DNA of 64,000 nt, taken from positions 5,415-69,414 of the forward strand of contig JABMPT010000008.1 in the NCBI GenBank assembly GCA_013202845.1. Reading direction: 5' to 3'. Source of the stretch: Candidatus Woesearchaeota archaeon (GTDB lineage: Archaea; Nanobdellota; Nanobdellia; Woesearchaeales; GCA-2686295). This document shows, in pieces, positions 1 to 37,057 of this stretch. Positions within the stretch are counted from its first letter, which is position 1, and each line of letters opens with the position of its first letter. The notes under the pieces were generated by a model. The model did no database searches, had not been told where the DNA came from, and worked only from the letters and a program-made list of their open reading frames with translations. The position numbers and the translations under genes were made by a program.

Positions 1-447
1 AGGAATAAAATACCTGTTATAACCGGGAAAACAACTCCTTTCCACATTGGAAGAGCAGAGGTTTTCAAGAAAGGAACAGATGTAACTATAATTGCTTGTG
101 GAATAATGGTTAACGAAGCATTGAAAGCATCGGAAGAATTGTATAGTCACGGAGTGAATGCTGAATTAATAAACTGCCACACAATAAAGCCCATTGACAA
201 AGCTAAGATAATAGCTTCCGCAAAGAAAACAGGTTGTGTCGTGACAGCAGAAGAACACCAGAAGCATGGTGGATTAGGAAGTGCAGTTGCAGAAGTGATT
301 GTTAAGCATCACCCAGTGCCGATGGAGTTTGTAGCAGTGAATGACAAGTTTGGAGAAAGCGGCAAACCAGACGAATTAATGAAGAAATATGGATTAACTT
401 CTAAAGACATAGTTCATGCAGTGAATAAAGTCGTTAAAAGGAAGTAA
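1..447 (+). CDS. transketolase C-terminal subunit, 5'-truncated by the window edge
   Basis: Frame 1 is open from position 1. The C-terminal sequence (GGLGSAVAEV..., ...PDELMKKYGLT) matches the transketolase C-terminal domain family. Stop TAA at 445-447. Confidence 0.75.
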   Translation, partial: RNKIPVITGKTTPFHIGRAEVFKKGTDVTIIACGIMVNEALKASEELYSHGVNAELINCHTIKPIDKAKIIASAKKTGCVVTAEEHQKHGGLGSAVAEVIVKHHPVPMEFVAVNDKFGESGKPDELMKKYGLTSKDIVHAVNKVVKRK

Positions 448-490
448 TGCTTGCTCGGGGCATAATAGAAGAGATAAGAATCAGATTTAA

Positions 491-1009
491 TTATTTCAAT
501 TTACTAAAATACTTTGAGAACTTCTGAACATATGAATTCTCAATTAAACCTTGTTCTGTTTCACTAGTTAGTCTAAAACCTGTAGCAAGAACAGCGGAAG
601 CAATTCCATTCAAAGGAATCTGCCAAGTAGAAGAAAGCAAAGGATCCTGAGAACCGCCAATAAGATGAGATAAATAAGTTGCACCAAAAGCAAAAGCAGT
701 AGTGCTAACAGTAGAAGTACCAATAGCTAAATTTCTATTAGGAATATTAGTTGCAATATACTGACAAATTCTCGTATTAAAACCGCCGATAAGTAAATTA
801 TAAAAAAACTGATTACGAAAAACAACCGCAGCTTCCAAAGCACCATAATCACTATTAATAAAAGCATTAATGCCGCCAATAAGAAAACCGCTCAAAGCAC
901 CAACCTTATAATTTATACCTTTGGAAGTGAAATCATAAATACGCCTAATAACACCAGGGTGGTTCTTAACAACAGAATCATATTCAGAATCAACTAAATT
1001 CTCATCCAT
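491..1009 (-). CDS. hypothetical protein (Gly-rich, possibly membrane-associated)
   Basis: 172-aa ORF with no recognisable motif. Confidence 0.35.
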   Translation of the reverse strand: MDENLVDSEYDSVVKNHPGVIRRIYDFTSKGINYKVGALSGFLIGGINAFINSDYGALEAAVVFRNQFFYNLLIGGFNTRICQYIATNIPNRNLAIGTSTVSTTAFAFGATYLSHLIGGSQDPLLSSTWQIPLNGIASAVLATGFRLTSETEQGLIENSYVQKFSKYFSKLK

Positions 1010-1141
1010 GCTTAAAGGAAATAAAAATAGTTTATATACTTTAAGAAAAAAGATGAGGGGAAAGAAGGGTTGATAAGTGTTTGGGAGGGGGAGGCGGAAG
1101 GATTTCGGGATGTTTTATACTAAAGTAAAGAATGTGAAACT

Positions 1142-1945
1142 CTATTCTGGGCTTTGGCTTTTCTTCGTTGTTAAAAGAATTGTCTTGTACGGAAGAGAAA
1201 GATTATCTGGCTCATCTTTCAACAACTCAGATAAATCATCTAAAAACTTTTTTGATTCTTCATCAGGTAAAGAACTAACCCATCCCCAAGTCCTTATTAA
1301 TTTAACGTACTTGTCCTTTGTTAATTCTAAATTCCAATAATGGGTGTTTACTTCAGTTGGTTCAAACAAACCACTTGTATCTAACTTATCAATATATCTT
1401 TTTGGTGAACCACAATCAGGAGGAAATATTGGACAATGTTTAAGATATAAATCTCTTACTTGTGCAACTAAACCTCTTTTATCATAATCCTCAAAATTCC
1501 AAAAAGCAGCAAGTGTTCCAGAATCTTTTAATAAATCAGAAATTTTTTTATAACCAACTTCTGGTATAATCCAATGAAGAGCTTGTCCGGAAATAATTAA
1601 ATCAAACGATTCTTTCGACAAATCCACAGTTTCAAATTCTCCAACAACATAACTAACATTTGGTAAAGTTGAAGATTTTTCCCTTGCAATATCAATTAAT
1701 TCTTCACTAAAATCTACTCCAATTACTTGATAACCTCTTTCACCAAATAAAATTGTAGCTCTTCCTGGACCACAACCAATATCTAAAACATCACCATTAT
1801 CTGGAACTCCTGAAATTTCAATAACATCATCAACCACCGAACTAGGATAAGTAGGTCTAGCTTCATCATACAAAGCACTATTTTTTCCAAATTCTTTCTT
1901 TATTTCGTTAGGTGGATCCATTATAATTTCCAAAATGAAGAACAA
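1142..1945 (-). CDS. class I SAM-dependent methyltransferase
   Basis: Motif I VLDIGCGPGRATI, followed by the acidic loop GVDFSEEL. Confidence 0.7.
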   Translation of the reverse strand: MFFILEIIMDPPNEIKKEFGKNSALYDEARPTYPSSVVDDVIEISGVPDNGDVLDIGCGPGRATILFGERGYQVIGVDFSEELIDIAREKSSTLPNVSYVVGEFETVDLSKESFDLIISGQALHWIIPEVGYKKISDLLKDSGTLAAFWNFEDYDKRGLVAQVRDLYLKHCPIFPPDCGSPKRYIDKLDTSGLFEPTEVNTHYWNLELTKDKYVKLIRTWGWVSSLPDEESKKFLDDLSELLKDEPDNLSLPYKTILLTTKKSQSPE

Positions 1946-2000
1946 GTTTTTAAGTCTTTACTTTGTTTTGGAAAAAAACTATATTTGAGAGAGAGTAAGA

Positions 2001-2047
2001 GATTGTTTGCTGGTGGCATTGGAAGAAGTGATGTCAGCTCGGGGCAC
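2001..2047. repeat. composite repeat copy (block 3 + GC hairpin block 4)
   Basis: gattgtttgctggtggcattggaagaagtgatgtcagctcggggcac. Confidence 0.65.
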
Positions 2048-2095
2048 TATTATTTAGGATAAGAAAAAGGGCATAACTATTTCTATATTGCAAGC

Positions 2096-3430
2096 TTATT
2101 TCTTCCTTTCTTTTCCATCAATATACGCATGCAGGTGATGATATCTCTTTGCGAGTTCTCCTTGATGTGCGATTACCGCTTTTTTGAACAATTTAGGTAT
2201 GTTTAGTTCTAGTCTTTCTTTGCTATAATCTGCTTTTACTAGTTGAGGTATAAATTGTAGTAATGCATCTCCAAATGATTTTGAAGCTTCTCTAGGTAGT
2301 TCTATGGGTAGTTTATCTTGTGCTAGTATTACTGGTCCAAATCCTTCTACTCCATCTTTTACTTTCTCTGTTAATGGTTCATATACATATACTGGGTTTT
2401 CGCTTGTCGTTGCTTTTGTCGTTAGTTCTATTGACCCTTCTATGTCGCATGATATGTCTGCTATTACTCTTAGTTTTGGATTTGGATTGAATTCGTAGAA
2501 TTGTTTCATATAACTTAGTGTTACTAGTCTTGGAAACTTCGGTTCCCAGTATATTCCGTTTACCATTATGCTTAGGTATGGTATAAACTTTTCAAATTTG
2601 CTTGTGAATCTTTCTGGATACTTTCTATATAGATAGCTGTCAAAGTTTCCTCCTTCTTTTTTCATAAGAATGTCTGATTTTTTAAATTCAACTATGTATA
2701 TTACTCCGTTTGAGAATTTTCCTTTTCTATAAAATGCTCCTAGTTCATCAGCAGATATGTTTATGGATGGTAGTAATCTGATGATTTCTTGTGATGCTTT
2801 TGAAACTCTTCCAAATCCTGTGAATCCAATAACAAGTGGTGTTAATTGGTTTGGCAGTCCTTCTTTTTTGATTTTTTTACCTATGTTCTTGATAACTTTT
2901 TTTATTTCAGCTAAACTATCATATGTACATGTTTGTTTTAATTCTTCAAATGGGTTTTCAACTCCATCCCATTTTAATCTTTTACCAAAAATCCATAAGG
3001 CATTAATCATTCCAACATAACCTGCATAATCACCAAAGAATACTACTCTTCTTCCATTATCTCGCTTTACTAGTTCATAATCAATTAAAGTAATTTTTTT
3101 CTTAAGAATTTGCTTGAGCATTCCCATATTGTATTTTTGACCTTTGATTGTATGAGAAAAAAACAAATAAGTTTTGCCTGCTATTAGCTCTTTAGCTGGA
3201 ACTTCTTTTACTCCTAGAATAACTTTACATGGTTTTAAGTCTCTTGAGATAGTTGCACCTGTCGCTCTATATTCTGCATCTTTAAAAATACGTAGTTTTG
3301 AAGGTTGAACTATTACTCCAATATCTTTATGTTCATGAATTAGTTTTTTAACATGCTCTGGTGTTAATACAACTCTTCTCTCATCAACATGGCCTGTTTC
3401 TTTTTTTATACCAATAAACACTTTCTCCAT
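2096..3430 (-). CDS. saccharopine dehydrogenase / LOR-SDH (alanine dehydrogenase/PNT-like) family protein
   Basis: 444 aa; architecture and length resemble lysine-ketoglutarate reductase / saccharopine dehydrogenase-like enzymes. ATG start at 3430. Confidence 0.5.
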   Translation of the reverse strand: MEKVFIGIKKETGHVDERRVVLTPEHVKKLIHEHKDIGVIVQPSKLRIFKDAEYRATGATISRDLKPCKVILGVKEVPAKELIAGKTYLFFSHTIKGQKYNMGMLKQILKKKITLIDYELVKRDNGRRVVFFGDYAGYVGMINALWIFGKRLKWDGVENPFEELKQTCTYDSLAEIKKVIKNIGKKIKKEGLPNQLTPLVIGFTGFGRVSKASQEIIRLLPSINISADELGAFYRKGKFSNGVIYIVEFKKSDILMKKEGGNFDSYLYRKYPERFTSKFEKFIPYLSIMVNGIYWEPKFPRLVTLSYMKQFYEFNPNPKLRVIADISCDIEGSIELTTKATTSENPVYVYEPLTEKVKDGVEGFGPVILAQDKLPIELPREASKSFGDALLQFIPQLVKADYSKERLELNIPKLFKKAVIAHQGELAKRYHHLHAYIDGKERKK

Positions 3431-3546
3431 AAAAGTAATAATTTCATGTCAGGCTTTAAACTTTCCTATTTCTCAAATAATCTTTTGAATCATAAAAGAA
3501 TATTTAAAGGTTTTACAAATATAGAGTAACATCAATATATTTGTTT

Positions 3547-3616
3547 TCGACATGAAGAAATGTTGAACAGAGTTGTTTAATAAGTGTTTGGGAGGGAAAA
3601 GCGGAAGATTTTGAAC
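3547..3616. repeat. composite intergenic repeat copy (blocks 1+2)
   Basis: Near-identical to 9590-9658. Confidence 0.7.
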
Positions 3617-4450
3617 TTATTCAACAGCTGCTGGAATTTTAGGAGCTCCATCAAACAATATTGTATTCTCAGGGATTTTTTCCTTCATTGTGCCAAACTT
3701 AATGTGACAATTAATACTATTCTTTTTACAGAATTCTATAACTTGTGTTGCACATTTTTCATAAAATTCCTCATTACCATTTCTAAACATACTGCTTTCC
3801 ACATTATAATTCAACTTTCCAAAAATGATGGTGTCTACAAAAGAAATTTTGTTTAATATTTCTAACAGGTTTTGCTTTTGTATACTCTCAGGAGGGTATG
3901 GCTCAACACTAACCCATGTTTTCAATCCTTGGTCATGAAGATATTTTAATGCTGCAATCCTTTTTTCATAAGGAGCGCTATAAGGTTCCCATTTTTTCTT
4001 ATAATTATTATCAAGAGAAACTAGAGTAATTCCATATTCATTATTAGCACCGAATTTTTCAATGTTCTTCAAAACTTTAGGATAAATTCCTTTTGTTAAA
4101 ACAGTGCATTTAATATTGTCCTTGTTAAGTCTTGCAATGATTCTCAGCGTTAAATGTTCAACTTCTTTATAACCACACATGAAAGGGTCTGTCATAAAGC
4201 ATAGATGAACAAATTTTATCTCATCTTTGTATTTTGGAATTTCCTTATCTAAGATTTCAATCGCATTTTCGACGATTTTAGGTTTTAGCCAGTCATGATA
4301 AGTTTTGACTCTCCCAAACCTTTTAGCCATATTGAAAGCATAGCAAGGAAAAGTACACCCATGAGAACAACCTTCAACATGATTGATACAGAAATCAGCG
4401 TATTCAACACCACTTTTATACAAAAGACTCTTCCTTTTAACACTCTCCAA
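3617..4450 (-). CDS. radical SAM / SplB (COG1533)-like protein with variant three-Cys motif C-x3-C-x3-C
   Basis: N-terminal GCSHGCTFPCYA resembles the GCSHxCxYCYA cluster of SplB-like radical SAM proteins but has one extra residue. Apparent TTG start. Immediately upstream of the TcmP-like gene. Confidence 0.5.
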   Translation of the reverse strand: MESVKRKSLLYKSGVEYADFCINHVEGCSHGCTFPCYAFNMAKRFGRVKTYHDWLKPKIVENAIEILDKEIPKYKDEIKFVHLCFMTDPFMCGYKEVEHLTLRIIARLNKDNIKCTVLTKGIYPKVLKNIEKFGANNEYGITLVSLDNNYKKKWEPYSAPYEKRIAALKYLHDQGLKTWVSVEPYPPESIQKQNLLEILNKISFVDTIIFGKLNYNVESSMFRNGNEEFYEKCATQVIEFCKKNSINCHIKFGTMKEKIPENTILFDGAPKIPAAVE

Positions 4451-4513
4451 GTCCTAACACCTCATACTTCACCCTTTTTACAATAAAATAATAATAGTAT
4501 ATAATAGTTTTGA

Positions 4514-5596
4514 TTATGAAAATATCACTGAATCTTCTTCATTTAAACCAGTTCTTGGCTTTCCGGTTTTAGTTTCTTTCTCAAATCGGTCTATTTTGGC
4601 TTTGCCTTCAATCTCAAGTTCTTTAATAACTTGACGAAAATGTTTTACAAGATAAACTGTTTCATCTAACTGATCACAAATGATTTCTTGAAAGGTTTTT
4701 GTTTTTTTCGAATATTCAGATAATAAATATTTTTTTAATTCTTTGAATTTTATATCATCATAGTCAAAAAAAGTCATTTGATTCTGATTCCTTCCTCTAT
4801 ATTCAACGCGTCCATGATTATATTTAGCGAAAGAACTCTTCATTATCTCACATCCTAGATAATAATTTGTTAAATGAAATAAATAATAATAAGTTCTTTT
4901 CATTAAAGGAAAACTTATTTTAAAAGGATATACAAATTCACAGAACTCTTTTAGTTTTAGACGATAAAGTTCTATTGTTTTATTTTCTTTATCTTGACCT
5001 GAGAACTTATTTAGAGATTTCCATTCATCAGAACCGAATAAGTCAGTCAAAACATTGCTAGCTTGTTCAACATTCAAATTTCTTATTATACCATCATACA
5101 TAAAATTTAAGAAAATCTCTGATTTCGGAATTTTCATCATTTTTTTTAAAGTTGTTAACTTGATTTTAAATCCGAAAGGATCAACAAAGAAAAAGGATGG
5201 GGCTAAATTTGTATGTTTGTCTAGAATTTTATTTATTGCTTTATCAAAATCTGAATTAATAAACTTAACTTCAACATCTAACTTTCTAAGTTCGAGAATT
5301 GTTTTAATATTATCAAGGTTTGATTGTTTGCTATCAATTATAATAAGACATGCGTCTCTTTTTAGACCTTCACTATTTTTTTTAATTATTTCCGCCGCAA
5401 GTATTGGAGAACCATAAAAAATTGATTCTTTATATTCATAGGCTCCAATTCCGCCAAACCCATCAAAATAATTTAAAGGACTAGATTTTCCAACAATTTT
5501 AATCCATTTATCAAAATAATCTGCAAATACCAAATGTTTTATTTTAGTGTGTTCTTGATATTTCCAAGTTTTAAAAGGGAGTTTTGTTTCTTTCAT
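4514..5596 (-). CDS. three-Cys-motif partner protein (TcmP-like)
   Basis: N-terminal HTKIKHLVFADYFDKW resembles the TcmP family signature. Gene pair with the 3-Cys protein, separated by a 63-nt spacer. First ATG at 5596 (the track's first M is GTG). Confidence 0.45.
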   Translation of the reverse strand: MKETKLPFKTWKYQEHTKIKHLVFADYFDKWIKIVGKSSPLNYFDGFGGIGAYEYKESIFYGSPILAAEIIKKNSEGLKRDACLIIIDSKQSNLDNIKTILELRKLDVEVKFINSDFDKAINKILDKHTNLAPSFFFVDPFGFKIKLTTLKKMMKIPKSEIFLNFMYDGIIRNLNVEQASNVLTDLFGSDEWKSLNKFSGQDKENKTIELYRLKLKEFCEFVYPFKISFPLMKRTYYYLFHLTNYYLGCEIMKSSFAKYNHGRVEYRGRNQNQMTFFDYDDIKFKELKKYLLSEYSKKTKTFQEIICDQLDETVYLVKHFRQVIKELEIEGKAKIDRFEKETKTGKPRTGLNEEDSVIFS

Positions 5597-5686
5597 CACA
5601 AAAAAGGTTGTTTATTATTATGGTAGTTTTGTATTTATATACTTTATGTGACCATGTCCAGTGCTGGAAACTTATTCATCAGAAGG

Positions 5687-5729
5687 ATTGTTTGTTGGTG
5701 GCATAAGAATTAATGTCCGCTCGGGGCAT
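5687..5729. repeat. composite repeat copy (block 3 + GC hairpin block 4), overlapping the 3' coding end of 5710-6267
   Basis: gattgtttgttggtggcataagaattaatgtccgctcggggcat. Confidence 0.65.
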
Positions 5730-6267
5730 ATTTATTCTTTTTTAAAAGAACCACTTTCCAAGTCACTTTTCCATCCTTATTCATTTTTACTTCAGGACGA
5801 ATATTGTAATTCGGCTCAATTTTACACTGTTCACAAGCAATCATATAGAGCACCGCAACTAATAATACACTATACACATGAAACTTTTGCCAATCATTAG
5901 AAGAACTAACTGCCTTAAGTAATTCTGCATTATCTGTATGAAACAATAACTCCATATTTTCAAGTTTCTTATTAACATCTTCAATAGTTACAGTAATTGA
6001 ATGAACGAGTTTATTTCTCAAATCAATAATTAATTTGATAAGATTGTAAGCACGTTTTTCTAAAACACCTTTACTCAAAAGAGCTTTACATCTTTCCTTA
6101 AGCGTTCCTTTAACACCCATCTTCTTACAAATAAAAAGTAAGTAATGCTCCATGTATAAATCAATATACAAAATAAGAACTCGAACGTCAAAAGTAGGTT
6201 TTTGACGTACTATTCCTTCAATGTCATTATAAAACGATATTAAATTAACAATTTTCTTCATAAACAT
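5710..6267 (-). CDS. HEPN-like protein (RN-x3-H motif)
   Basis: IDLRNKLVHS fits the HEPN R-x4-6-H consensus (RNxxxH). Helical, 185 aa. The C-terminal codons coincide with the repeated GC-rich hairpin motif. Confidence 0.4.
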   Translation of the reverse strand: MFMKKIVNLISFYNDIEGIVRQKPTFDVRVLILYIDLYMEHYLLFICKKMGVKGTLKERCKALLSKGVLEKRAYNLIKLIIDLRNKLVHSITVTIEDVNKKLENMELLFHTDNAELLKAVSSSNDWQKFHVYSVLLVAVLYMIACEQCKIEPNYNIRPEVKMNKDGKVTWKVVLLKKNKYAPSGH

Positions 6268-6581
6268 AAAAATACTTCTTGTATGTATTTAATTATTTTC
6301 TTTTTCTTAAATAACCACACAACAAAAACAACCTTTTCAAGAGTGAATCCGGAAAGAATCACAGGAACAAGCGAGGAAGGATAGTTTGTTGGTGGCATAG
6401 GAGGAAGTGATAAAGAAGAAGAATAATCATCGGGGTTATTATGGAAAGCAATAGATGTTGTATATGAGAATAAAATGTTTTCATCCTTCGAATATTGGAT
6501 ACGGGATGCAGACAAAAGCACACCAAGTGTGAAAACGGCAAAGAGAAAAATTACTAAAATTCTTGCTAATCCCGACAAATC

Positions 6582-6773
6582 TTATCTCACTCTGTACTCA
6601 TAAGCGTTTCTCCTACCGGCGTTCTTATACGTGAGGAGGTTTGTTTTCCTCAGCTTCTTCAGAGACATGGTCACTGAACCAATAGAAACTTTCAATCTTT
6701 TAGCAATATCTTTAGATGCAAACCATCTTCCTTTGTTCTTACACAGAAAATCATACACTTCTTGCTGCCCCAT
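6582..6773 (-). CDS. small winged-helix DNA-binding protein
   Basis: 63 aa, basic. SIGSVTMSLKKL.K..LL resembles a wHTH recognition helix. ATG at 6773. Confidence 0.45.
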   Translation of the reverse strand: MGQQEVYDFLCKNKGRWFASKDIAKRLKVSIGSVTMSLKKLRKTNLLTYKNAGRRNAYEYRVR

Positions 6774-6936
6774 CAAAAATCACCACTTATGATTTTTGTG
6801 AGTCTCAAAAAAGTCTTTTTTTGTTGCCCCATAATTACCGCTCTTTATGTATTTGAAACGTTGCAGTATATAAGCCTTTGTTTTTATATAGCAACATCCG
6901 TAAACAACCACAGAACAATCGAGAAAATTATTTTAT

Positions 6937-7668
6937 TCATATTTCAACTCCCTTCTTTTTTAAGTATATAAAAATAGGACCAGTGATCAAAGCAATAATC
7001 ATAACCAAGAGACTTCCATATAGAAATCTATCTAGTAAATACCAAACTGGTTTAAAATAAAAGAAGTACCTGATAGCAACTTTTAGCCCATGTATAATGA
7101 TGGAATATAAAACTCCTAGAACCAGCACATTTGAAATATTAAAATCCCCATAAGTTTTTATGAGTTTGATTAAAGAAAAAACAATCATTAAAGCCCATAA
7201 AGCCTGAGTTAAGTTTAGGAAATATGGTATGTTGTACTTTAAACCGATTACATATTGCGAAATGGCTATCAATATTGCTCCCAAAACATAATATCTTATT
7301 GGCCAAAGATATTCTTTTAGAGTTTTGCCAGCGATTCTAGTTTTAAAAACGAATAGCAACATCAATGTGATTACGACTGTTATCAATGGGATAAGAAAGA
7401 ACAGGTCATTGTATTTTTTTTGCAGGCTCAGAGGAAGGATTCTGCTTTGTTCTTCCCGCGGACATGGAACCAAATCATCCCCCGCATAACATTTTTCTGT
7501 TTGTTCAACAAGAGTGGTGGCTCTATCAAGTTTGTCTTCTTCAATACAATCCTCTGGACATAAATCATAATTTTCATTGCTTAAATCACAAAATCCATCT
7601 CCGCAAATCGCCTGGACTAAAGATATATTTATCAGAATAATAAGAATTAAAAAACAAATTCTTTTCAT
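6937..7668 (-). CDS. secreted/membrane protein with N-terminal Cys-rich domain (CGDGFC motif) and multiple transmembrane helices
   Basis: Signal-peptide-like N-terminus, Cys-rich CGDGFCDL...CPEDC, then hydrophobic helices. Confidence 0.45.
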   Translation of the reverse strand: MKRICFLILIILINISLVQAICGDGFCDLSNENYDLCPEDCIEEDKLDRATTLVEQTEKCYAGDDLVPCPREEQSRILPLSLQKKYNDLFFLIPLITVVITLMLLFVFKTRIAGKTLKEYLWPIRYYVLGAILIAISQYVIGLKYNIPYFLNLTQALWALMIVFSLIKLIKTYGDFNISNVLVLGVLYSIIIHGLKVAIRYFFYFKPVWYLLDRFLYGSLLVMIIALITGPIFIYLKKKGVEI

Positions 7669-7822
7669 TTTTTACCTCTTTTTAAATAATATTAACTAAT
7701 CCACTATTTAAATATACTTAAAAAATATCTTTTTTTGGTACAAAGAAATTGTCTTACTTTTATCGAATTTCTATGACTTCTCAAAATGCCCCTTTATCCT
7801 TGTTCTTGATGTCCCACATTTA

Positions 7823-8059
7823 TCAACCAATCCTTCCCATCATCTCCCCACAATACTCCTCAACATCATCATGTTCCAAAACAATTATGTCCTCTCTGTC
7901 ATAAAACAAATCATAGCACTCATGCTCATCCATCAGCTTCTCTTCCATCTCAGCAACCTCGTTCTTCAACTCCTGAACCTTGCTCATCGCTATCAACAAC
8001 GCAAATAACAGTATCAAAGCCAAAGTCCTCGGCTCAAATATCCTGCGTATGAATTTCAT
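7823..8059 (-). CDS. small secreted hypothetical protein
   Basis: 78 aa with a hydrophobic N-terminus. Confidence 0.3.
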   Translation of the reverse strand: MKFIRRIFEPRTLALILLFALLIAMSKVQELKNEVAEMEEKLMDEHECYDLFYDREDIIVLEHDDVEEYCGEMMGRIG

Positions 8060-8140
8060 TTTATTTTAACCTCTCCTTGATATCAACATCCTTCTTCTTG
8101 TACTCCTCCCATCCTTCAGGAGTACAAAAATCACTGTTTT

Positions 8141-8211
8141 CGCCATGAAGAATTGATGAGAGAGGTGTTTAACAAGTGTTTGGGAGAAAAAAGCGGAGGA
8201 AATGCGGGAAG
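8141..8211. repeat. composite intergenic repeat copy (diverged block 1 + block 2)
   Basis: cgccatgaagaattgatgag...aagtgtttgggagaaaaaagcggaggaaatgcggg. Confidence 0.6.
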
Positions 8212-8216
8212 AAAGA

Positions 8217-9491
8217 CTATTTTATTAGATGTATTTTCTCTTGTATCGGAACAAACAATTCAAATCCGTTTTTTGTAACAACACCATCTACTTCAATAGA
8301 AGCACCATTTGCCACTTGCATTCTTGGTTCTATTGTCATTACATAACCGGCTCTTAGCGGTAATTGAGAAGTTGGGTTAACATCATCTCTTCCTTCAGTT
8401 GATCCTTCATTAGTATAATCTAAAAACTTAGGACCAAAAGAAACGCCCGGAGCATGTGTTCCTCCAGCACCTAATTGATGTCCTGTGCTATGCATGTAAG
8501 GTGGATAGCCTGCATTAACAATTACATCTCTTGAAGCTTTATCAACCTCCCAACCTGCAACTCCAGGTTTTGCTGCTAACATCCCTGCTTTAATTGAATC
8601 ATTAAGCAATCCAAACATTTTTTGCACATGTTCAGGAGCTTCAGTTTCTCTATCTTTCAAGACATATCCAAAGTGTTGCAAGTCGCCATGGTAACCATTA
8701 ACACTCAATCCAAAATCAATATAAACTGTTGCTCCAGGATCAATAACCCTGTCTGATGGCTTCATATGCGGACTTCCTGCAATGCCTTCCCCAGTTAAAA
8801 CAATTGGATTACGTTCTTTCTCCCAGCTATAACCCAGTTTATTATTGCCTGAAATTCTCTCATCAGAAATTTTATGGAGAAGATCAGCAACATTTTTTTC
8901 TGTCATTCCAGATTTTATCAGCCCAAATCCTTCAATTAAAACATCATTTGTTACCTGAGCTGCTTCTCTCAGCAGATCTATCTCGTATGGGAGCTTTGTA
9001 CTTGCTATAGTGAATATTAATTGATCCGCAGATATAAATGCTTGTTCCTTTGGTTTATCGATTGAGAAATAACCTTCACGCCAGAGTTCTGTTGAAAGAT
9101 TTCTGAAACTTCCGTGACCTAAAGTGTCGACATTTGTGAATTCTTCAGAATAGTTTATTGCCATAGGAGCAACGCCATTTTCTCCTACAATAGAAGCTAA
9201 GTTTTTAGCTACTGTTGGAAAGACATTTCTTCCCTCCATCCTTATTGTCTCGAAACCATATTGCTTTTGAATTTCTAATTCGATATCATGAGAAACAGCA
9301 ACCGTTCGTGTTGGAGTTAGTATATAAGCACGAGGAGATGAACCAGATGGAGCCCCAATTAGTGGCAAATGCGCCTTCTCAGCCTTATTATCTGCAACAA
9401 GTGTAATCCACACAGGAATATCCAACTGCCCCATAATCTCTTGAGCTTGTTTTCTCTTGGCTAAACATTGCTCTAAGTTTGAATCCCCCAT
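8217..9491 (-). CDS. M24-family metallopeptidase (Xaa-Pro aminopeptidase/creatinase-like)
   Basis: Pita-bread fold signatures (..DFG..VNGYHGD.., HSTGHQLG, ..EPR..). Confidence 0.6.
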   Translation of the reverse strand: MGDSNLEQCLAKRKQAQEIMGQLDIPVWITLVADNKAEKAHLPLIGAPSGSSPRAYILTPTRTVAVSHDIELEIQKQYGFETIRMEGRNVFPTVAKNLASIVGENGVAPMAINYSEEFTNVDTLGHGSFRNLSTELWREGYFSIDKPKEQAFISADQLIFTIASTKLPYEIDLLREAAQVTNDVLIEGFGLIKSGMTEKNVADLLHKISDERISGNNKLGYSWEKERNPIVLTGEGIAGSPHMKPSDRVIDPGATVYIDFGLSVNGYHGDLQHFGYVLKDRETEAPEHVQKMFGLLNDSIKAGMLAAKPGVAGWEVDKASRDVIVNAGYPPYMHSTGHQLGAGGTHAPGVSFGPKFLDYTNEGSTEGRDDVNPTSQLPLRAGYVMTIEPRMQVANGASIEVDGVVTKNGFELFVPIQEKIHLIK

Positions 9492-9589
9492 ATTAAAAAC
9501 AGGTAATCTAAATTTATATATAAGTATTGTGGAATATCACTTCTTCCCACCCTTTTTATATAAAAAAGTAACCAAACTAATGGTCAATT

Positions 9590-9682
9590 TCGACATGAAG
9601 AAATGTTGATAGAAGTGTTTAATAAGTGTTTGGGAGAGGAAAGCGGAGGAATTGCGAGTTGTTTGTTGGTGGCATAAGAAGG
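9590..9682. repeat. composite intergenic repeat (blocks 1+2+3: tcgacatgaagaaatgttga...gtttaa | taagtgtttgggag-rr-aagcggagg-aattgcgag | ttgtttgttggtggcataagaagg)
   Basis: Blocks recur at 1071-1109 (block 2), 3547-3616 (1+2), 8141-8211 (1+2), 2001-2047 (3+4), 5687-5729 (3+4) and 6381-6407 (3). Confidence 0.7.
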
Positions 9683-9749
9683 TTTCTGAAACGAAAAATA
9701 GAAATATTTATATGCATTTGTGTATATTTGTAGTTACGGGGGATATAAA

Positions 9750-9896
9750 ATGGAATCGAAGAATATCACTTTAAGAGTCAATTCAAAATTGTATGATGGT
9801 TATAAGCAATTTTGCAAGAAGAAGGGATTATTGATATCGAGACAAGTTGAAATTATGATGGAAAAACAGTTTAAAGAGAGACAAAAAAATGACTGA
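9750..9896 (+). CDS. ribbon-helix-helix (CopG/Arc-like) small DNA-binding protein
   Basis: 48 aa, MESKNITLRVNSKLYDGYKQFCKKKG...; has the RHH beta-strand/helix pattern. Not in the ORF track (<60 aa). Its stop overlaps the ATPase start (8-nt overlap). GGGGGAT Shine-Dalgarno-like sequence upstream. Confidence 0.4.
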   Translation: MESKNITLRVNSKLYDGYKQFCKKKGLLISRQVEIMMEKQFKERQKND

Positions 9897-14842: not shown

Positions 14843-14963
14843 TATTGATTTATAGAATATTATTTATTATAAATCTTATTAAAATTATTGAACTTAGATT
14901 AAATTTTTTGACCCGGAACGATGTAAACTATTTTTTTGAACAAAGTTTTTTTACAGCAACTTT

Positions 14964-15026
14964 CGTAAATAACCACACAAAAACAACTTTGAGAGTGAAT
15001 CAAGAAAGAATCACAGGAACAAGCGA
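14964..15026. repeat. second intergenic repeat family (cgtaaataaccacacaaaaacaac tttgagagtgaatcaagaaagaatcacaggaacaagcgag)
   Basis: Copies at 6306-6377 (fused to block 3 of the first family), a shortened variant at 6888-6935, and the 5' part at 16221-16250. Confidence 0.6.
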
Positions 15027-15049
15027 GAAAAATAATTATTCTAGAACTT

Positions 15050-16190: not shown

Positions 16191-16281
16191 AGTAGAAACT
16201 TCTTTTTAAAGATTTAGATTTTTCGTAAATAATCACACAAAAACAATCTTTATATACAACATTTGTTTAACATTTGTTATA

Positions 16282-19063: not shown

Positions 19064-19243
19064 ACTTAAACGGACAAGTTCTACATTCAGGTCTATTTTC
19101 TAAATTCATATCTTCAGTATAATCTTTACAATCAGGATATGTTCCTATACATCCAGGGAACTTGCTTGTTATACTACTACCTTTTGCACTTTGTTTATAT
19201 GTGTGTCTCTTAGGTAACTTTCTTCCTGTTCCGCCCATTTTAA
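19064..19243 (-). CDS. small basic Cys-rich protein (possible zinc ribbon)
   Basis: 59 aa, MGGTGRKLPKRHTYKQ...C.G...C...C..C; TATA-like sequence about 30 nt upstream. Not in the ORF track. Confidence 0.25.
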
Positions 19244-19368
19244 TTTAATACTATCTTTCTTATTTAATTTTTTCTATCCCTTCCTTCTATAATCTTTAAC
19301 AACTTTCTCTTTTTATTATTTTAATCTTTCAAAAATCAATCTTTTTTAGAAAGGGAAGTGGAACCTTA

Positions 19369-19923: not shown

Positions 19924-19944
19924 AGTTAAAAGAAACTAGAACAA

Positions 19945-19995
19945 TTTTTTAAAGGTTTTACTAAATATCCCTTCCTCTACAACCTTTATATAATC
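19945..19995. promoter_or_regulatory. bidirectional promoter block: TTTTTTAAAGGTTTTA (for minus gene 19369-19923) plus TTTATATA box (for plus gene at 20016)
   Basis: AT-rich TATA-like elements about 25-30 nt upstream of both divergent starts. Near-identical blocks at 22168-22183, 31067-31083, 34533-34549 and 35044-35063, each about 20-30 nt upstream of minus-strand starts. Confidence 0.5.
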
Positions 19996-20015
19996 ATCTT
20001 CTTTTCTTTTTCGTT

Positions 20016-20486
20016 ATGAAGAGTTTTTCAAAAGATGAAATTGAGGGAACTAGAAACTTCTTTAGAAATAAAAACTTTCAAGAAGTGGATGTATCTTTAG
20101 GTGATAGAACCTTTAGTTATTTTGTAGTCCCTCAATCTCAAGAACCAAACTTAGTTAACTTTGTTGTTCGTTTAACAGGAAAACCTGAGGATGGTTATGT
20201 TCTGGGCATTTCAGACAGCGTTGATTCAAGATATAGGCAGTATGCTGTGGTTCATGAATTCATAGAGTTCGTTGAGATAGGTATCAACACTAAAGATAGA
20301 TGTGTAAAAGCTTTAGATGAAGAATTAAAATTGGTTCCTGAGGACTTAAAGCCTGATTACATTAGGATGAGAGCTGAATTCTTTAGAAATCTGATTCCTT
20401 TCTGTTCAAAACAGCCTGAGTTCTATACAAACGATGATTTGAATCAATTCAGAAAGAATCTTGCTAAATTAGAAGAGTTAGTATAA
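20016..20486 (+). CDS. hypothetical protein, paralog A (family duplicated at 32895-33365)
   Basis: About 85% amino-acid identity to the second copy; TTTATATA box about 25 nt upstream. Confidence 0.5.
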   Translation: MKSFSKDEIEGTRNFFRNKNFQEVDVSLGDRTFSYFVVPQSQEPNLVNFVVRLTGKPEDGYVLGISDSVDSRYRQYAVVHEFIEFVEIGINTKDRCVKALDEELKLVPEDLKPDYIRMRAEFFRNLIPFCSKQPEFYTNDDLNQFRKNLAKLEELV

Positions 20487-20521
20487 GGTCCCTCTATTGC
20501 TTTCTATAATAACCCTCACAA

Positions 20522-20890
20522 CTATTCTTCTTCAATAATCATCTTTGCGAAGGTTTCATAATCAGTTTCAATGATTATTATTTTATATCCAAAAGCCAGA
20601 CCTATATCCATTCCTTTTTTTACTTCACCATTATGAGTGTATTCTAATTCTACTCCTAATCCTGACCATATGCACTTTGCGCCTCTAGGACATGGCGAAT
20701 TATAGAATTCAAGGATTTTCACTTCAAAATCAACATCTTTAATTATTGCCGTTTGATTTAAGTGCAATATGAATTCTTCATTTAAGTTAACGTAAATATC
20801 TTCATAATGTTGAGTGTCAGGTGTTTTCTGGCTACAACCAGCTATTATAATAGAAACCATTATAACAACAATTATTAGCGACTTATTCAT
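20522..20890 (-). CDS. lipoprotein
   Basis: Signal peptide plus lipobox IAGCS. Its 3' terminal 43 bp is copied at 23111-23153. Confidence 0.45.
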   Translation of the reverse strand: MNKSLIIVVIMVSIIIAGCSQKTPDTQHYEDIYVNLNEEFILHLNQTAIIKDVDFEVKILEFYNSPCPRGAKCIWSGLGVELEYTHNGEVKKGMDIGLAFGYKIIIIETDYETFAKMIIEEE

Positions 20891-20950: not shown

Positions 20951-22147
20951 TTAAAAACTTTCTTGCGCCTCTCTTTTGCATTGTCTGTACAACTCGTTAG
21001 ATGGGTCTAGTTCTATTGCTCTGTCATAGTTCGGTATTGCTTCTTCTAGTTTTCCTTGGTCGACTAGTGTTTCTGCTTTATTAATCCATGCGTTTGAAAA
21101 TGTTGGGTCTAGTTCTATTGCTCTGTTATAGCATTTTATTGCTTCTTCTAGTTTTCCTTGGTTGACTAGTGTTATTCCTTTGTTGCTCCATGCTGTTGCG
21201 TCTTTTGGTTTTATTTCTATTGCTTTATCAAAACATTCTATTGCTTCTTCTAGTTTTCCTTGGTCGTATAGTGCTGCTCCTTTGTTGTTCCAAGCAAGTC
21301 TATGTTTTGGCTTTAGGCTTATTGCTTTGTCATAGTTTTTTATTGCTTCTTCTAGTTTTCCTTGTTTTCTTAGTGTTAATCCTTTGTTGTTCCATGCCAA
21401 CGCGAGTTTTGGTTTTATGTTGATTGCTTTGTCATAGCATTCAATTGCTTCTTCAAATCTTTTTAAGTTTTTCAGCGCTACTCCTTTGTTGTTCCATGCT
21501 GTTGCGTATTTTGGTTTTATGTTGATAGCTTTATCATAGCATTCTATTGCTTCTTCTGGCTTTCTTTGGTCGGCTAGTGTTATTCCTTTGTTGTTCCATG
21601 CTCCTGTGTATTTTGGGTTTAGTTTTATTATTTTATCATAGCATTGTATTGCTTCTTCTAGTTTTCTTTGTTTTCTGAGTGCGTTTCCTTTGTTGTTCCA
21701 TGCAAATGCGTCTTTTGGGTTTAATTTTATTGCTCTGTCATAGCATTGTATTGCTTCTTCAAGTCTTTCCAAGTGATATAGTGTTACTCCTTTGTTGTGC
21801 CATGCGTCTGCGTATTTTGGGTTTATTCTTATTGCTTTGTCAAAACTTTCTATTGCGTCTTCTAGTTTTCCTTGGTTGTATAGTGCTACTCCTTTGTTGT
21901 ACCATGCGCCTCTGTCTTCTGGGTCTATCTTTATTGCTTTATCATAGCATCGTATTGCTTCTTCATATCTTTCCAAATTATGTAAGTTTGCTCCTTTGAT
22001 AATCCATGCGTCTGCGTCTCCCTGCCCCATTGCTAGCAAGAACCAATTTTTAAGTCTTTTTGTTATCTTTTCTTCTTTTATTTTAATTTCTATCTCTGCC
22101 AACTCTTCAAATTCTCTTTCCAGGTTTAAGTCTTCATCCAAAGTCAT
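20951..22147 (-). CDS. TPR-repeat protein (paralog 1)
   Basis: About ten 34-aa TPR units (AW.NKG..L......EA...Y..A....P). N-terminus shared with the other two copies. Confidence 0.8.
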   Translation of the reverse strand: MTLDEDLNLEREFEELAEIEIKIKEEKITKRLKNWFLLAMGQGDADAWIIKGANLHNLERYEEAIRCYDKAIKIDPEDRGAWYNKGVALYNQGKLEDAIESFDKAIRINPKYADAWHNKGVTLYHLERLEEAIQCYDRAIKLNPKDAFAWNNKGNALRKQRKLEEAIQCYDKIIKLNPKYTGAWNNKGITLADQRKPEEAIECYDKAINIKPKYATAWNNKGVALKNLKRFEEAIECYDKAINIKPKLALAWNNKGLTLRKQGKLEEAIKNYDKAISLKPKHRLAWNNKGAALYDQGKLEEAIECFDKAIEIKPKDATAWSNKGITLVNQGKLEEAIKCYNRAIELDPTFSNAWINKAETLVDQGKLEEAIPNYDRAIELDPSNELYRQCKREAQESF

Positions 22148-22167
22148 AATAATAGAAAGTAAAACAA

Positions 22168-22240
22168 TTTTTTAAAGGTTTTACTAAATATCCTTCCCTC
22201 TACAACCTTCAACAACTTTCTCTATTTATTATCTTTTTCA
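22168..22240. promoter_or_regulatory. copy of the shared promoter block upstream of the TPR paralog 1 start (22147)
   Basis: Same 45-bp block as at 19945-19990. Confidence 0.45.
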
Positions 22241-22344
22241 ACTCTTTTAAGAATTAACTTCTTATTTCTTCAACGAATCTACTTGCATCCTTTGGATTCT
22301 GAATAAGAATAACATCTCTATAGCTTTCTCCAAAAGTATTCCTT

Positions 22345-22923: not shown

Positions 22924-23110
22924 AAGGACTCCTCCTGATTAGAAAAAAGTCATCCAGCAACCCAGAGGGATCACTGGGGATCATTTTAATAATATTAATA
23001 TTAATATCTTTATAAATATTGCTCTTTTTTAAGCTCACCATACTTTTTCTCATACATCACTTTTTTCCCTTATCCCTTCCTCTATAATCTTTCATAATCA
23101 ACTTTCCAGA

Positions 23111-23153
23111 ACTATTCTTCTTCAATAATCATCTTTGCGAAGGTTTCATAATC
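23111..23153. repeat. 43-bp exact copy of the 3' end (last 13 codons plus stop) of lipoprotein gene 20522-20890
   Basis: actattcttcttcaataatcatctttgcgaaggtttcataatc is identical at 20521-20563; flanked by a copy of the ccttcctctataatcttt promoter block. Confidence 0.7.
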
Positions 23154-24254: not shown

Positions 24255-24303
24255 AGAAATAATGAGAGTAGAATATTTTAAAAGTGTTGTGGATAATAAT
24301 AAA

Positions 24304-24320
24304 GTGCCCCGAGCGGGCAT
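24304..24320. repeat. GC-rich hairpin motif GTGCCCCGAGCGGGCAT (stem TGCCC/GGGCA, loop CGAGC)
   Basis: The core 12-mer GTGCCCCGAGCG or its reverse complement also occurs at 447-463, 2031-2047, 5713-5729, 27664-27678, 32200-32213 and 32832-32845, in a genome of about 32% GC. Confidence 0.7.
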
Positions 24321-24435
24321 TAGTATCTAAACAACTTTTATTTCTTCCAATTCTGGAAAATTAATATTATTTTAAAAAGATATAGAACATCTCCCCTCAC
24401 AACATTTTTATACTCTCTCTTTAATATTCCTTCTT

Positions 24436-27604: not shown

Positions 27605-27700
27605 TTTCTAAGATTTTTGAATTACATAATTTTTTTATTCTAAGTTTTCTAACCAAAATAAGAGTGCCCCGAGCGCATCAAAAAGACTATTTTGTTTTGG

Positions 27701-28795
27701 TTATTGTTCAGGAAGTATTCCGTTTTCAAGATAGGTTTTGATTTCGAGAAGGCTTAGCCCTGCAAGCCCCAAGGTTTTAAGGCTGCGTTTTTTCTGGGCG
27801 AAATAATCAATATCTAATATTGCGGAACCAATAGCGACCATAGCCTGTGCTGTAGGTGTGGGAACATTAAGAAGCTCGCCCATTTCACAGTATAATACTA
27901 GCCCAAAGCCTATGTCTTCATGAAAATAGCGGTGATCTAATGTATTGGGACTGGTGAAACCAGCAAATCCCTTACCATTTTTATAACATTCTAGATAGTC
28001 CGTGCTTTCTGCATACCCTTGAGCCACGCAGGTCTCTGGATCAGGTCGAGCTGAATATCCAAAAGCCCTGAGAATGGCCATGCGTTCTTCATCAAGTTTT
28101 TTGATTAGCTTGGCTACCGAAGATGATAACCCTTGATTATAGAAAAGCATATCTTCATTTTCAAACCGTGCTCCATTTAAAAGGGCTATGGGTGGATGAA
28201 TCACGGGGTTAGCATTATTTAATCCTGCTTCAAGCACGCTTTTAGCACGCACAAGTCCCGGAAACAGTTTTTCAAGTGACGGTCCTACTTCATCGATTCT
28301 ATTGGCGGGAAAAGTACTGTATAAAACTCGTCCAACCTTCACTGCAATATTAATCTTGTTCCCTTTTGCTCGACATCCATAAGTAAGGGTATGAAATTCT
28401 CCAAGAAGCGGCAGTTCCTTCAAGCCCCTTTTACGAAATATATTGGCAAGATATAGTGATCCGCCGGTTGATCCTGGATTGAGTATAACACATTGCTCTG
28501 GTTTTACAAGAGAGGTAAGTTCCTGCCCTACTCTTTCGTGCGTGAGAGCCTGAGTACAGATCATAATCATGTCTGCACCGTTAACTGCTTTGGCCAAATC
28601 AGATGTAATAAACTCTAATTGGGCTGTTCCCTGTACTGCTCCTTGCAAAGTAATTTGAGGTTTTTCTTTGAGCATGTCAATATTAGCTGCATACTCAGGA
28701 AACTCGAAGAGCCGTACTTTTTTCCCCTGTAGAGCCAGGTCTCCAGCTGCAGCTTTACCACCATTACCAGCCCCAATTATTGCTATAGTTTCCAT
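27701..28795 (-). CDS. NAD(P)-dependent opine dehydrogenase-like oxidoreductase
   Basis: Rossmann motif IAIIGAGNGG; length and helical C-terminus as in octopine/nopaline dehydrogenase. Start moved to ATG at 28795. GC-richer than the flanks. Confidence 0.5.
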   Translation of the reverse strand: METIAIIGAGNGGKAAAGDLALQGKKVRLFEFPEYAANIDMLKEKPQITLQGAVQGTAQLEFITSDLAKAVNGADMIMICTQALTHERVGQELTSLVKPEQCVILNPGSTGGSLYLANIFRKRGLKELPLLGEFHTLTYGCRAKGNKINIAVKVGRVLYSTFPANRIDEVGPSLEKLFPGLVRAKSVLEAGLNNANPVIHPPIALLNGARFENEDMLFYNQGLSSSVAKLIKKLDEERMAILRAFGYSARPDPETCVAQGYAESTDYLECYKNGKGFAGFTSPNTLDHRYFHEDIGFGLVLYCEMGELLNVPTPTAQAMVAIGSAILDIDYFAQKKRSLKTLGLAGLSLLEIKTYLENGILPEQ

Positions 28796-28894
28796 TGTAA
28801 GAAGGAAAACAAATATGACGATATATAAAATCATTGTTTTAATTTATTTTCATCAGAGAATTAATCTTCTGGAATGTAGCCATGACCTGTTGAT

Positions 28895-30261: not shown

Positions 30262-31047
30262 TCAAAGGCTCTCTTGCGCCTCTCTTTTGCTTTGTCTGTA
30301 TAGCTCGTTAGAAGGGTTTAGTTCTATTGCTCTGTCAAAGTTTGGTATTGCTTCTTCTAGTTTTCCTTGGTCTGCTAGTACTTCTGCTTTGTTAATCCAT
30401 GCGTTTGAAAGTGTTGGGTCTATTTCTATTGCTTTATCATAGCATTTTATCGCTTCTTCTGACTTTTCTTGTTTGTCTAGTGCTGTTCCTTTGTTGTTCC
30501 ATGCCTTTGCGTATTCTGGGTCTAGTTCTATTGCTTTGTCATAGTGTTGTATTGCTTCTTCTAGCTTTTCTTGTTTGTCTAGTGCTAGTCCTTTGTTGTT
30601 CCATGCGTTTGGGTCTTTTGGGTTTAGTTCTATTGCTCTGTCTAAGTTTTGTATTGCTTCTTCTAGCTTTCCTTGTTTGTATAGTGTTGCTCCTTTGTTA
30701 CACCATGCATTTGCGTGTTTTGGGTCTAGTTCTATTGCTTTATCATAGCATTTTATTGCTTCTTCATATCTCCCCAAGTCATTTAGTGCTAGTCCTTTGT
30801 TGTTCCATACTGTTGCGTGTTTTGGTTTTAATTCTATTACTTTATCATAATTTCGTATTGCTTCTTCTAGCTTTCCTTGTTTGTATAGTGCTAGTCCTTT
30901 GTTGAACCATGTCGTTGCTTCTCCCTTCCCTATTACTAGCAAGAACAAATTTTGAAGTCTTCTTGTTATAGTTTGTTTTATCTTAATCTCTATCTCTGCC
31001 AACTCTTCAAACTCACGTTCCAGATCTAGTCTTTTATCCAAAGTCAT
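30262..31047 (-). CDS. TPR-repeat protein (paralog 2)
   Basis: Same N-terminus (MTLDKRLDLEREFEELAEIEIKIK) and TPR units as 20951-22147. Confidence 0.8.
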   Translation of the reverse strand: MTLDKRLDLEREFEELAEIEIKIKQTITRRLQNLFLLVIGKGEATTWFNKGLALYKQGKLEEAIRNYDKVIELKPKHATVWNNKGLALNDLGRYEEAIKCYDKAIELDPKHANAWCNKGATLYKQGKLEEAIQNLDRAIELNPKDPNAWNNKGLALDKQEKLEEAIQHYDKAIELDPEYAKAWNNKGTALDKQEKSEEAIKCYDKAIEIDPTLSNAWINKAEVLADQGKLEEAIPNFDRAIELNPSNELYRQSKREAQESL

Positions 31048-31066
31048 AATAATGGAAAGTAAATGA

Positions 31067-31083
31067 TTTTTTTAAAGGTTTTA
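31067..31083 (-). promoter_or_regulatory. TTTTTTTAAAGGTTTTA TATA-like promoter element of TPR paralog 2
   Basis: 20 nt upstream of the start at 31047. Confidence 0.45.
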
Positions 31084-31195
31084 CCAAAAACACATTAAGA
31101 ATTAATTTTTTCTTATGCCTTGAGCAAACTCAAAAACAGTTTCGTGACTACAAAAAACAACAAAATTTAAATATGTGGTCACCTTATAAGTTTAT

Positions 31196-32104: not shown

Positions 32105-32245
32105 CCACAAATAAAGAATATTAAATTATGGTAGACACCTTATAGACGAGAAGTTACCATTACAAATATATAATTAGTGTGTTTTTAGAGAAAAAGAAAG
32201 TGCCCCGAGCGAGAAAAAAAGGAATAAATAAAAAAATTAAATTAT

Positions 32246-32752: not shown

Positions 32753-32894
32753 AATATCACCGAATTTATGTATTATTATTCATATATAAAAAAGTTATTA
32801 TTTTACCCTAAAAGATTGAACGAATAATAAAGTGCCCCGAGCGAGCTTATCCCCTCTACAACCTTTATATATAAATCTTCTTTCCTGTTTTTTT

Positions 32895-34103: not shown

Positions 34104-34226
34104 TTTATGGTAAAGTATTGATATTATTTAACTTTTTCCCCTATCCCTTTCCTCTATAATCTTTAACAACTTTCTCTATTTATTATTTTTATTTTCAACA
34201 AGGGTCATTTTTCCAGCTAATTAGCT

Positions 34227-35034: not shown

Positions 35035-35043
35035 AAGAAAGCT

Positions 35044-35063
35044 TATTATTTTTTAAAGGTTTA
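35044..35063 (-). promoter_or_regulatory. TTTTTTAAAGGTTTAA TATA-like element of TPR paralog 3
   Basis: About 10-28 nt upstream of the start at 35034; another copy at 34533-34549 upstream of 34529. Confidence 0.45.
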
Positions 35064-35072
35064 ACTAAAAAC

Positions 35073-36969: not shown

Positions 36970-37057
36970 AATGATTTAATTAGTAGAGTAACTATAAAAA
37001 GTTTATGATAGGTTTTTATTAAAAAATTTTATATAAGAATTTTAATTCCCTGTCTGA

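Follow-up and report, generated by a model that had tools for sequence, protein, structure and literature searches.

The attC sites of integrons are imperfect inverted repeats (R''-L'' / L'-R') that form a single-strand hairpin of about 55–140 nt, with the boxes R'' (RYYYAAC) and R' (GTTRRRY) lying 45–160 nt apart, and clusters of attC sites lacking the integron integrase IntI (CALINs) are also known. On Acinetobacter plasmids, modules flanked by Xer sites (pdif) are bounded by 28-bp sites with inverted arms and alternating orientation. Repetitive extragenic palindromic (REP) sequences and bacterial interspersed mosaic elements (BIMEs) are palindromic and dispersed, number over 100 and have alternating orientation inside BIMEs (PMC2817692, PMC3333891), and REPs are known insertion targets of insertion sequence (IS) elements (PMC1525189). 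Here we describe a mosaic intergenic repeat in a 64,000-nt stretch of DNA from a Candidatus Woesearchaeota archaeon (hereafter the window), where copies of one unit of about 120 nt separate unrelated genes inside an island between tkt and rpiB. We read this unit, with a probability of about 0.4, as a lineage-specific, non-coding junction or recombination-substrate repeat of a cassette-like island.

We analysed 83.4 contiguous kb, made up of the window with 9.5 kb on its left and 9.8 kb on its right. The window corresponds, in reverse complement, to a segment of the Joint Genome Institute (JGI) metagenome contig Ga0335114_10915424 (339,489 nt). The same region was found on four contigs from four samples with at most two base differences, so only one strain was sampled. 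A first-pass annotation of this DNA had reported four recurring sequence blocks (B1–B4) at seven intergenic sites, all of which are present where it had placed them. Repeat finding on the window recovered them as four + strand families: D1 (B1 and B2; starts 3546, 8138 and 9588), D2 (B2; starts 1070, 3577, 8169 and 9619), D3 (B3; starts 2001, 5686, 6380 and 9657), and D4 (B4; starts 439, 2023 and 5705). With dinucleotide-preserving shuffles as the chance control, the B2 pattern had four matches against 0.00 expected and the B3 pattern four against 0.17, and copies matched one another in blastn at E-values from 1e-5 to 1e-17. The blocks are therefore real and far above chance, but they are not independent: they are fragments of one ~120-nt unit that, read along the + strand, consists of a 35-nt extension followed by B1, B2, B3, and B4. 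For comparison among copies, a composite unit was made from B1-B2-B3 of copy G plus B4 and aligned back to the window.

All seven copies of the unit lie on the + strand. Copy G (9554–9682; unit match 9588–9681) is the most complete and most consensus-like, carrying the extension with a TATA sequence at 9555–9562, then B1, B2, and B3 without B4 (unit positions 1–94), and it defines the composite up to position 94. Copy B (1928–2054) is a degenerate full B1-B2-B3-B4 (unit 1–119, 72% identical to the composite) whose 5' part overlaps a methyltransferase promoter region. The other copies are partial: copy A (1050–1115; unit match 1060–1115) has the tail of B1 with B2 (unit 21–77, 79% identity), copy C (3511–3611; unit match 3545–3611) has the 35-nt extension, B1 and B2 (unit 1–66, 88%), copy D (5686–5736; unit match 5688–5736) has B3 and B4 (unit 72–119, 92%), and copy F (8138–8206) has B1 and B2 (unit 1–69, 87%). 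Copy E (6303–6455) brings in two further mosaic blocks, with B0 (6303–6378) joined to B3 (6380–6411; unit match 6384–6411, unit 74–98, 86%) and followed by B5 (6415–6455). B0 recurs at 14961–15030 (+, 85% identical to 6303–6378) and in part at 16221–16251 (+), directly upstream of the TATA box of a Dam methylase gene, and B5 recurs inverted at 20493–20533 (minus strand) across the 3' end and 3' flank of gene 20522–20890.

The combinations seen were B1B2, B3B4, B1B2B3, B0B3B5, and B4 alone, and copies C and G have in common the 35 nt upstream of B1 (79% identity over 104 nt). The right ends of copies A, C, and F, of B0 in copy E and of B0 at 14961 all coincide with a GCG(G)AGGAA tail, so breakpoints cluster at the purine-rich joint of B2 and B3; as a common junction signal, the motif GCGGRRGRAW / GGYGGGAAGAA is enriched, but its sites are too few to support an argument. 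On the + strand the copies contain very little C (3–13%), and they are antisense to the ten minus-strand genes of 491–9491. Tandem minus-strand genes flank six of the copies and divergent genes the seventh (G); since none is in a convergent spacer, the earlier description of copies placed regardless of gene orientation goes too far. The sequence before B2 in copy A resembles the opposite strand of the last codons and double stop of a 78-aa open reading frame (ORF) at 7823–8059, with a 30-nt inverted match between 1051–1080 and 7816–7845 (83%), a resemblance that hints that part of the unit may derive from the 3' end of a gene. A near-perfect hairpin, GTACTCCT...AGGAGTAC, at 8100–8130 between copy F and the start of this ORF is unrelated to the repeats.

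Comparison with relatives places every copy in a lineage-specific island. In L064, the closest relative with a long contig (tkt 80% identical), tkt and rpiB are only 68 nt apart, and the genes upstream of tkt are the same as in the window. Downstream, the order rpiB, rpe, an AlaX-like gene, S19e, L31e, MetK, FtsY, prefoldin, PRPP synthetase, and eIF6 is collinear with window positions 36523–52700. By tblastx of the window against L064, tkt ends at 447 and rpiB occupies 36523–36969, and the stretch 448–36522 is therefore an island in the convergent tkt/rpiB spacer. In a second relative, L065 (tkt 74% identical), synteny with the window is lost right after tkt. The island has a GC content of 32.1% compared with 36.2% in the core, and its genes range from 0.15 to 0.56 in GC at third codon positions. 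Every copy of the unit and of B4 is inside the island, the unit copies within about 9 kb and B4 within 33 kb, and none occurs in the 47 kb of flanking core (27.5 kb in the window plus the 9.5-kb and 9.8-kb flanks).

The repeat sequence family turned up in none of the collections that we searched. In JGI metagenome contigs (B2 pattern), GTDB species genomes (B3 pattern), and IMG/VR (four patterns), sets that do not include the source contig, the scans gave only single chance matches without extended similarity. Blastn of the unit against plasmids and phages gave no relevant match, and the relatives L059–L067, fetched through the M24 aminopeptidase, tkt, and other window proteins, held neither the unit nor B4 when nhmmer profiles were included. 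The first-pass annotation had named two outcomes that would count against its proposals, blocks unique to the window and blocks that are conserved untranslated regions (UTRs) of paralogous genes. Blocks 1–3 were indeed found only in about 9 kb of the window, and they thus form a local cluster rather than a dispersed family; they are not UTRs of paralogues, because the genes that flank them are unrelated.

The segments between successive copies are 0.6–2.1 kb long and hold genes that are unrelated by Pfam and have their own promoters. These modules comprise a 172-aa membrane protein, an S-adenosylmethionine (SAM) methyltransferase, an AlaDH/LOR-like enzyme, a radical-SAM and TcmP pair, a HEPN-like protein, a winged helix-turn-helix (wHTH) protein with two small membrane proteins, and an M24 aminopeptidase. 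Among about 33 genes with a match to a box of the TTTATATA type, the first base of the box is 30–31 nt before the start codon in 16, a spacing that, judged from sequence, indicates archaeal and mostly leaderless mRNAs. The ribbon-helix-helix (RHH) gene at 9750 has a GGGGGAT Shine-Dalgarno-like leader instead.

Three modules tie the copies to gene borders, the first two described here and the third, gene 32246–32752, with block 4 below; they support the earlier proposal that copies bracket modules. The M24 gene has a relative in L060 that is 75% identical in protein. DNA homology between the two starts about 65 nt ahead of the start codon and continues for 16 nt beyond the stop. In the window it breaks off at 8203, where it meets copy F, and at about 9553–9557, where extended copy G begins at 9554; F and G are 69-nt direct repeats with 87% identity, and thus the M24 module is bracketed exactly by two direct copies. 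A 12-nt inverted repeat (GGCGGGAAGAA / TTCTTCCCGCC) lies at both ends of M24 in the window and in L060 (at about 110–125 and 1443–1460), its left arm GCGGGAAGAAAG at 8203–8214 (+, conserved in L060) and its right arm GGGTGGGAAGAAG at 9541–9552 (minus strand). Outside it the window and L060 differ entirely, and it could mark both ends of a small, mobile gene module, or else be a paired operator.

The second of these modules, the radical-SAM and TcmP (GMT-wHTH) pair at 3617–5599, was matched by PADLOC to the candidate defence system PDC-M30 (A subunit 6.7e-24). It is flanked by complementary halves of the unit, copies C and D, with the radical-SAM stop codon 5 nt beyond the end of copy C. A 14-nt direct repeat (13/14 identical; p ~0.003, uncorrected, against random island windows) has its left copy AACTTATTCAACAG at 3614–3627 (+), at the inner module edge and including that stop codon, and its right copy AACTTATTCATCAG at 5669–5682 (+), immediately before copy D. 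The other modules have no significant direct or inverted repeat at their inner edges, and with PDC-M30 alone carrying one, a uniform duplication-generating insertion mechanism therefore does not follow from the edges. The best full-length homologues of TcmP are 63–65% identical, and a 277-aa partial match that covers 77% of the query reaches 70%; at these distances no recent transfer can be traced.

Block 4 reaches further than the rest of the unit. Its core, the 10-mer GCTCGGGGCA, occurs seven times without a mismatch (0.38 expected) and has no one-mismatch variants, at 453, 2037, and 5719 on the + strand and at 24305, 27665, 32201, and 32833 on the minus strand; the copy at 453 and the four minus-strand copies, up to 32.8 kb, are additional to the sites of the first-pass annotation. 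The order is thus three + copies followed by four minus copies with no paired inverted copies, and the flanks have 6–18 of 30 positions identical between copies. One copy (442–470, core 453–462, +) marks the left island junction five bases after the tkt stop, and none is present at the right junction. On the minus strand, B4 at 24295–24324 lies in a divergent spacer upstream of a DEAD-box helicase promoter and B4 at 27654–27681 lies 19 nt past the stop of gene 27701–28834, while copies at 32192–32215 and 32822–32850 lie downstream and upstream of gene 32246–32752. This last pair is a direct repeat around a single-gene module, with 17 identical nt, CTCGCTCGGGGCACTTT, whose 5' variant was found nowhere else.

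Block 4 had been described as a GC hairpin, which folding did not bear out. Folded as DNA, only the copy at 24305 clearly beats its shuffles (−5.3 kcal/mol, z −2.8), while the other six stay within about 1.6 standard deviations of theirs, five of them at 0 to −2.2 kcal/mol, so it is the sequence of B4 and not a structure that is conserved. The spacers that hold it are convergent (453, 32201), tandem (2037, 5719, 27665), and divergent (24305, 32833), which fits neither a terminator nor a promoter element, and we rejected B4 as a terminator on its lack of a conserved hairpin and its presence in divergent spacers. Within copy D, a HEPN-like 185-aa ORF (5710–6267, minus strand) continues across B4 in reverse complement to its end, ...APSGH*, so that the repeat provides the C-terminus and the stop codon that this ORF now has.

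Set beside the known systems, the repeats appear to work most like the att-type repeats of tandemly accreted islets. They resemble these in having a copy at the 3' end of a conserved gene (B4 at tkt), same-orientation copies between modules, direct repeats that flank modules (F/G and 32201/32833), and an island that is absent in a relative (L064). They differ from att repeats in that the copies are 12–30% diverged and variably truncated and no cognate integrase was found in or next to the island, and the modules differ from att-flanked elements in being single genes or pairs without an element backbone, most of whose borders have no common core repeat. The layout, by analogy, is like that of an integron cassette array: integron arrays and CALINs, including archaeal ones, likewise consist of co-oriented short modules each followed by a related repeat, with genome-specific repeats and no adjacent integrase (PMC9668308), and in the island ten tandem co-oriented minus-strand genes (491–9491) have the repeat in seven of their spacers.

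Other systems fit less well. Like REP/BIME sequences (PMC2817692, PMC3333891), the repeats are short extragenic motif combinations, most of them placed shortly after a gene, that could be targets for insertion (PMC1525189); unlike them, B4 forms no stable palindrome, 7–8 copies occur in one island, and blocks 1–3 keep one orientation. We rejected the REP assignment because B4 is neither a stable palindrome nor abundant. The pdif modules are similarly discrete, bounded by short conserved sites and without a recombinase gene inside, whereas B4 is a non-palindromic, invariant 10-mer in direct orientation. Repeats of the diversity-generating retroelement type, considered for the purine-restricted variation, were rejected on three grounds: no reverse transcriptase is present, only A/G changes occur, and none of the copies lies within a target gene. 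The unit fails the defining tests of attC, miniature inverted-repeat transposable elements (MITEs), and REP/BIME.

Of the four origins proposed in the first-pass annotation, scars or att-like remnants of cassette insertion are the best supported. From the anatomy of the copies, their confinement to the island and their abutment to module edges, we infer an insertion history in which the copies are junctions between independently acquired, promoter-bearing gene modules and have served the island as its landing pad or recombination substrate. The modules would have been mobile and the direction of events would be that of genes arriving at repeats: a new module may have inserted into a copy and split it, as in C, PDC-M30, D, or between copies, leaving direct repeats, as in F, M24, G. 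Such insertion could proceed by homologous recombination between copies, or the enzyme could be a recombinase encoded elsewhere that recognises the GCTCGGGGCA core or the purine-rich B2/B3 joint. Copies may later decay or become local promoter sequence, as copy B possibly has.

Several points weigh against this reading of the unit as a junction repeat. No integrase, transposase, or other recombinase domain, including any Phage_integrase-type Pfam match, was found in the island ORFs scanned or in the called flank genes. The copies differ by 12–30%, so the events would be old or the sites loosely constrained. The inner-edge repeat is significant in one of nine modules (PDC-M30) and marginal after correction for 18 tests. 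In the one strain sampled, no empty site or alternative cassette was seen for any single module, and confinement to the island was judged on 83.4 kb of the 339,489-nt source contig. Finally, a functional site or a transcript would account just as well for the strict invariance of the 10-mer in B4 and for the 5' boundary that copies of B1 share.

The best surviving alternative, which we nevertheless consider unlikely, is that the repeat itself was mobile, a small non-autonomous element (REP/BIME-like, or a palindrome-associated IS200/IS605 derivative of the PATE type) that spread into existing spacers and was later truncated. Copies C, F, and G do have a common discrete 5' boundary, TTTCGMCATG, all copies are on one strand, blocks combine in mosaics as motifs do in BIMEs (PMC2817692), and REPs are known as insertion targets of IS elements (PMC1525189). 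The copies also have neither terminal inverted repeats nor target-site duplications, as is typical for IS200/IS605-type elements. However, B4 and B1 have no conserved hairpins, no Y1 or RAYT transposase was found in the 83 kb, and only 7–8 copies exist, confined to 9 kb (33 kb in the case of B4), while the flanking core has none. The complementary halves and the exact abutment to module edges are better explained by genes inserting into repeats. The related suggestion of MITE-like elements gained no support either, with inverted repeats lacking both inside the copies and at their ends, no flanking duplication (the left flanks of B1 are GTTT, AATT, and GTTT), and no dispersed copies outside the island in the 83 kb of contiguous sequence.

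Ranked after mobility, and doubtful in our view, is the explanation that selection has kept the blocks in each spacer as cis-acting sites. They could bind a putative island-encoded regulator (the wHTH protein at 6582–6776 or the RHH protein at 9750–9896), act as nucleoid or insulator sites, or serve as a G-poor 3'-UTR element that separates packed minus-strand units. The main support for this is B4, whose 10-mer is invariant in seven of seven copies while its flanks are only 20–60% identical. A heptad-like motif, AGTKGTTT, also appears three times in the unit, each transcription unit of the 491–9491 array has a copy within 5–126 nt past its stop codon, and the low C content of their + strand (3–13%) makes the copies poor in G when read in the mRNA sense. 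On the other side, the distance from copy to next start codon varies from 6 to 89 nt, different block sets occupy equivalent positions, the mRNA-sense strand has no consistent T-runs, B4 takes both orientations relative to genes across all three types of spacer, and nothing ties the sites to a particular protein.

Third in rank, and improbable as well, is the idea that the unit is a small + strand gene, for a small RNA or a micro-ORF, with a TATA promoter, a start at B1, a purine-rich B2 containing GGAGG, and an end at B4 plus a T-rich tail, so that truncated copies would send antisense transcripts into the 3' ends of neighbouring minus-strand genes. Copy G places a consensus TTTATATA 33 nt before B1, near the genome's TATA-to-start peak of 30–31 nt, and the 35 nt upstream of B1 common to C and G fit such a promoter. 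TTTATT-type runs follow B4, one frame is open across B1–B3 in F and G (MLIEVFNKCLGEESGG...), and the single indel between B3 subtypes is 3 nt. Against this, copies C, F, and B have no consensus TATA, a 1-nt indel breaks the frame in copy C, two stem changes of B1 in copy F are not compensatory, and all four blocks occur together only in copy B, the most degenerate.

The searches did not support a small non-coding RNA gene family, another of the origins first proposed. Fold energies lay within the shuffle range on both strands (z +1.2 to −1.96 for five sites), the minus-strand, gene-sense folds reaching −3 to −9 kcal/mol, and for covariation the copies were too few and too similar, with no fold beyond shuffles. 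No Rfam model matched the repeats at any E-value up to 5: the sole match in the window at the gathering threshold was a tRNA-His at 56 kb, and in E-value mode over 400–9800 there were four chance small nucleolar RNA matches (E 0.99–3.9), none on the repeat core. Small-protein frames (MFGR..., MPPTNN..., MFVGGI..., and MLIEVFNKCLGE...) were rejected, as they have no conserved continuation and one copy is frame-broken. A 106-aa JGI gene call at 6258–6578 (minus strand), which runs across B0-B3-B5 of copy E, is an orphan with no homologue among 1.84 billion representative proteins, and the call is probably spurious.

That the array is an archaeal integron remnant (a CALIN) with the blocks as attC sites is very improbable, since for all its same-strand ORFs of 0.5–2 kb interspersed with similar repeats it fails the fold and R''/R' box tests on which we rejected attC (no single-strand hairpin on either strand and no RYYYAAC...GTTRRRY pair in 11 array spacers on either strand), its copies are modular and truncated to different blocks, its cassettes have their own TATA promoters, unlike those of integrons and CALINs (PMC9668308), and no IntI was found in the island ORFs or the called flank genes.

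The rest of the island carries further accessory content. It also holds restriction–modification and defence genes, along with housekeeping-like genes for two DEAD/Ski2-type helicases, Dus, an aminotransferase, and an octopine-DH-like enzyme. Another family of intergenic repeats, unrelated to the first, 40–100 nt long and 75–90% identical, occurs at 19236–19347, 19927–20020, 22138–22267, 23062–23122, 31038–31091, 32853–32889, 34101–34201, and 35030–35081. Because most of these copies lie directly upstream of paralogous tetratricopeptide repeat (TPR) genes and their neighbours, they are probably shared promoter or 5' regions of paralogues. There are three such TPR-protein genes, at 20951–22147, 30262–31047, and 34558–35034, and the largest contains about ten tandem 102-nt (34-aa) units with 73–80% identical DNA. 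Beyond the island, smaller insertions relative to L064 lie at about 37.0–38.1 kb (queuosine salvage), 38.8–40.1 kb (a serpin), and 41.7–43.5 kb (a PALP enzyme and one further gene).

To our knowledge, almost nothing has been described about how Woesearchaeota gain accessory genes. It is a long shot, though one that the locus allows us to formulate, that DPANN archaea build cassette islands by a non-integron route in which promoter-bearing modules, including candidate defence systems, are exchanged at a ~120-nt site, with GCTCGGGGCA and the purine-rich joint recognised by a recombinase from the genome, a mobile element, or a host. Only a demonstration of cassette exchange at these sites, or of a cognate recombinase, would make the finding important. 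If the copies are mere decaying scars, they have no wider significance but still serve as markers that delimit modules such as PDC-M30. If they are true recombination sites, they would belong to a cassette system that standard integron tools do not see, because it has neither attC structure nor IntI. The repeats chart the borders within a variable Woesearchaeota island that is in part defensive.

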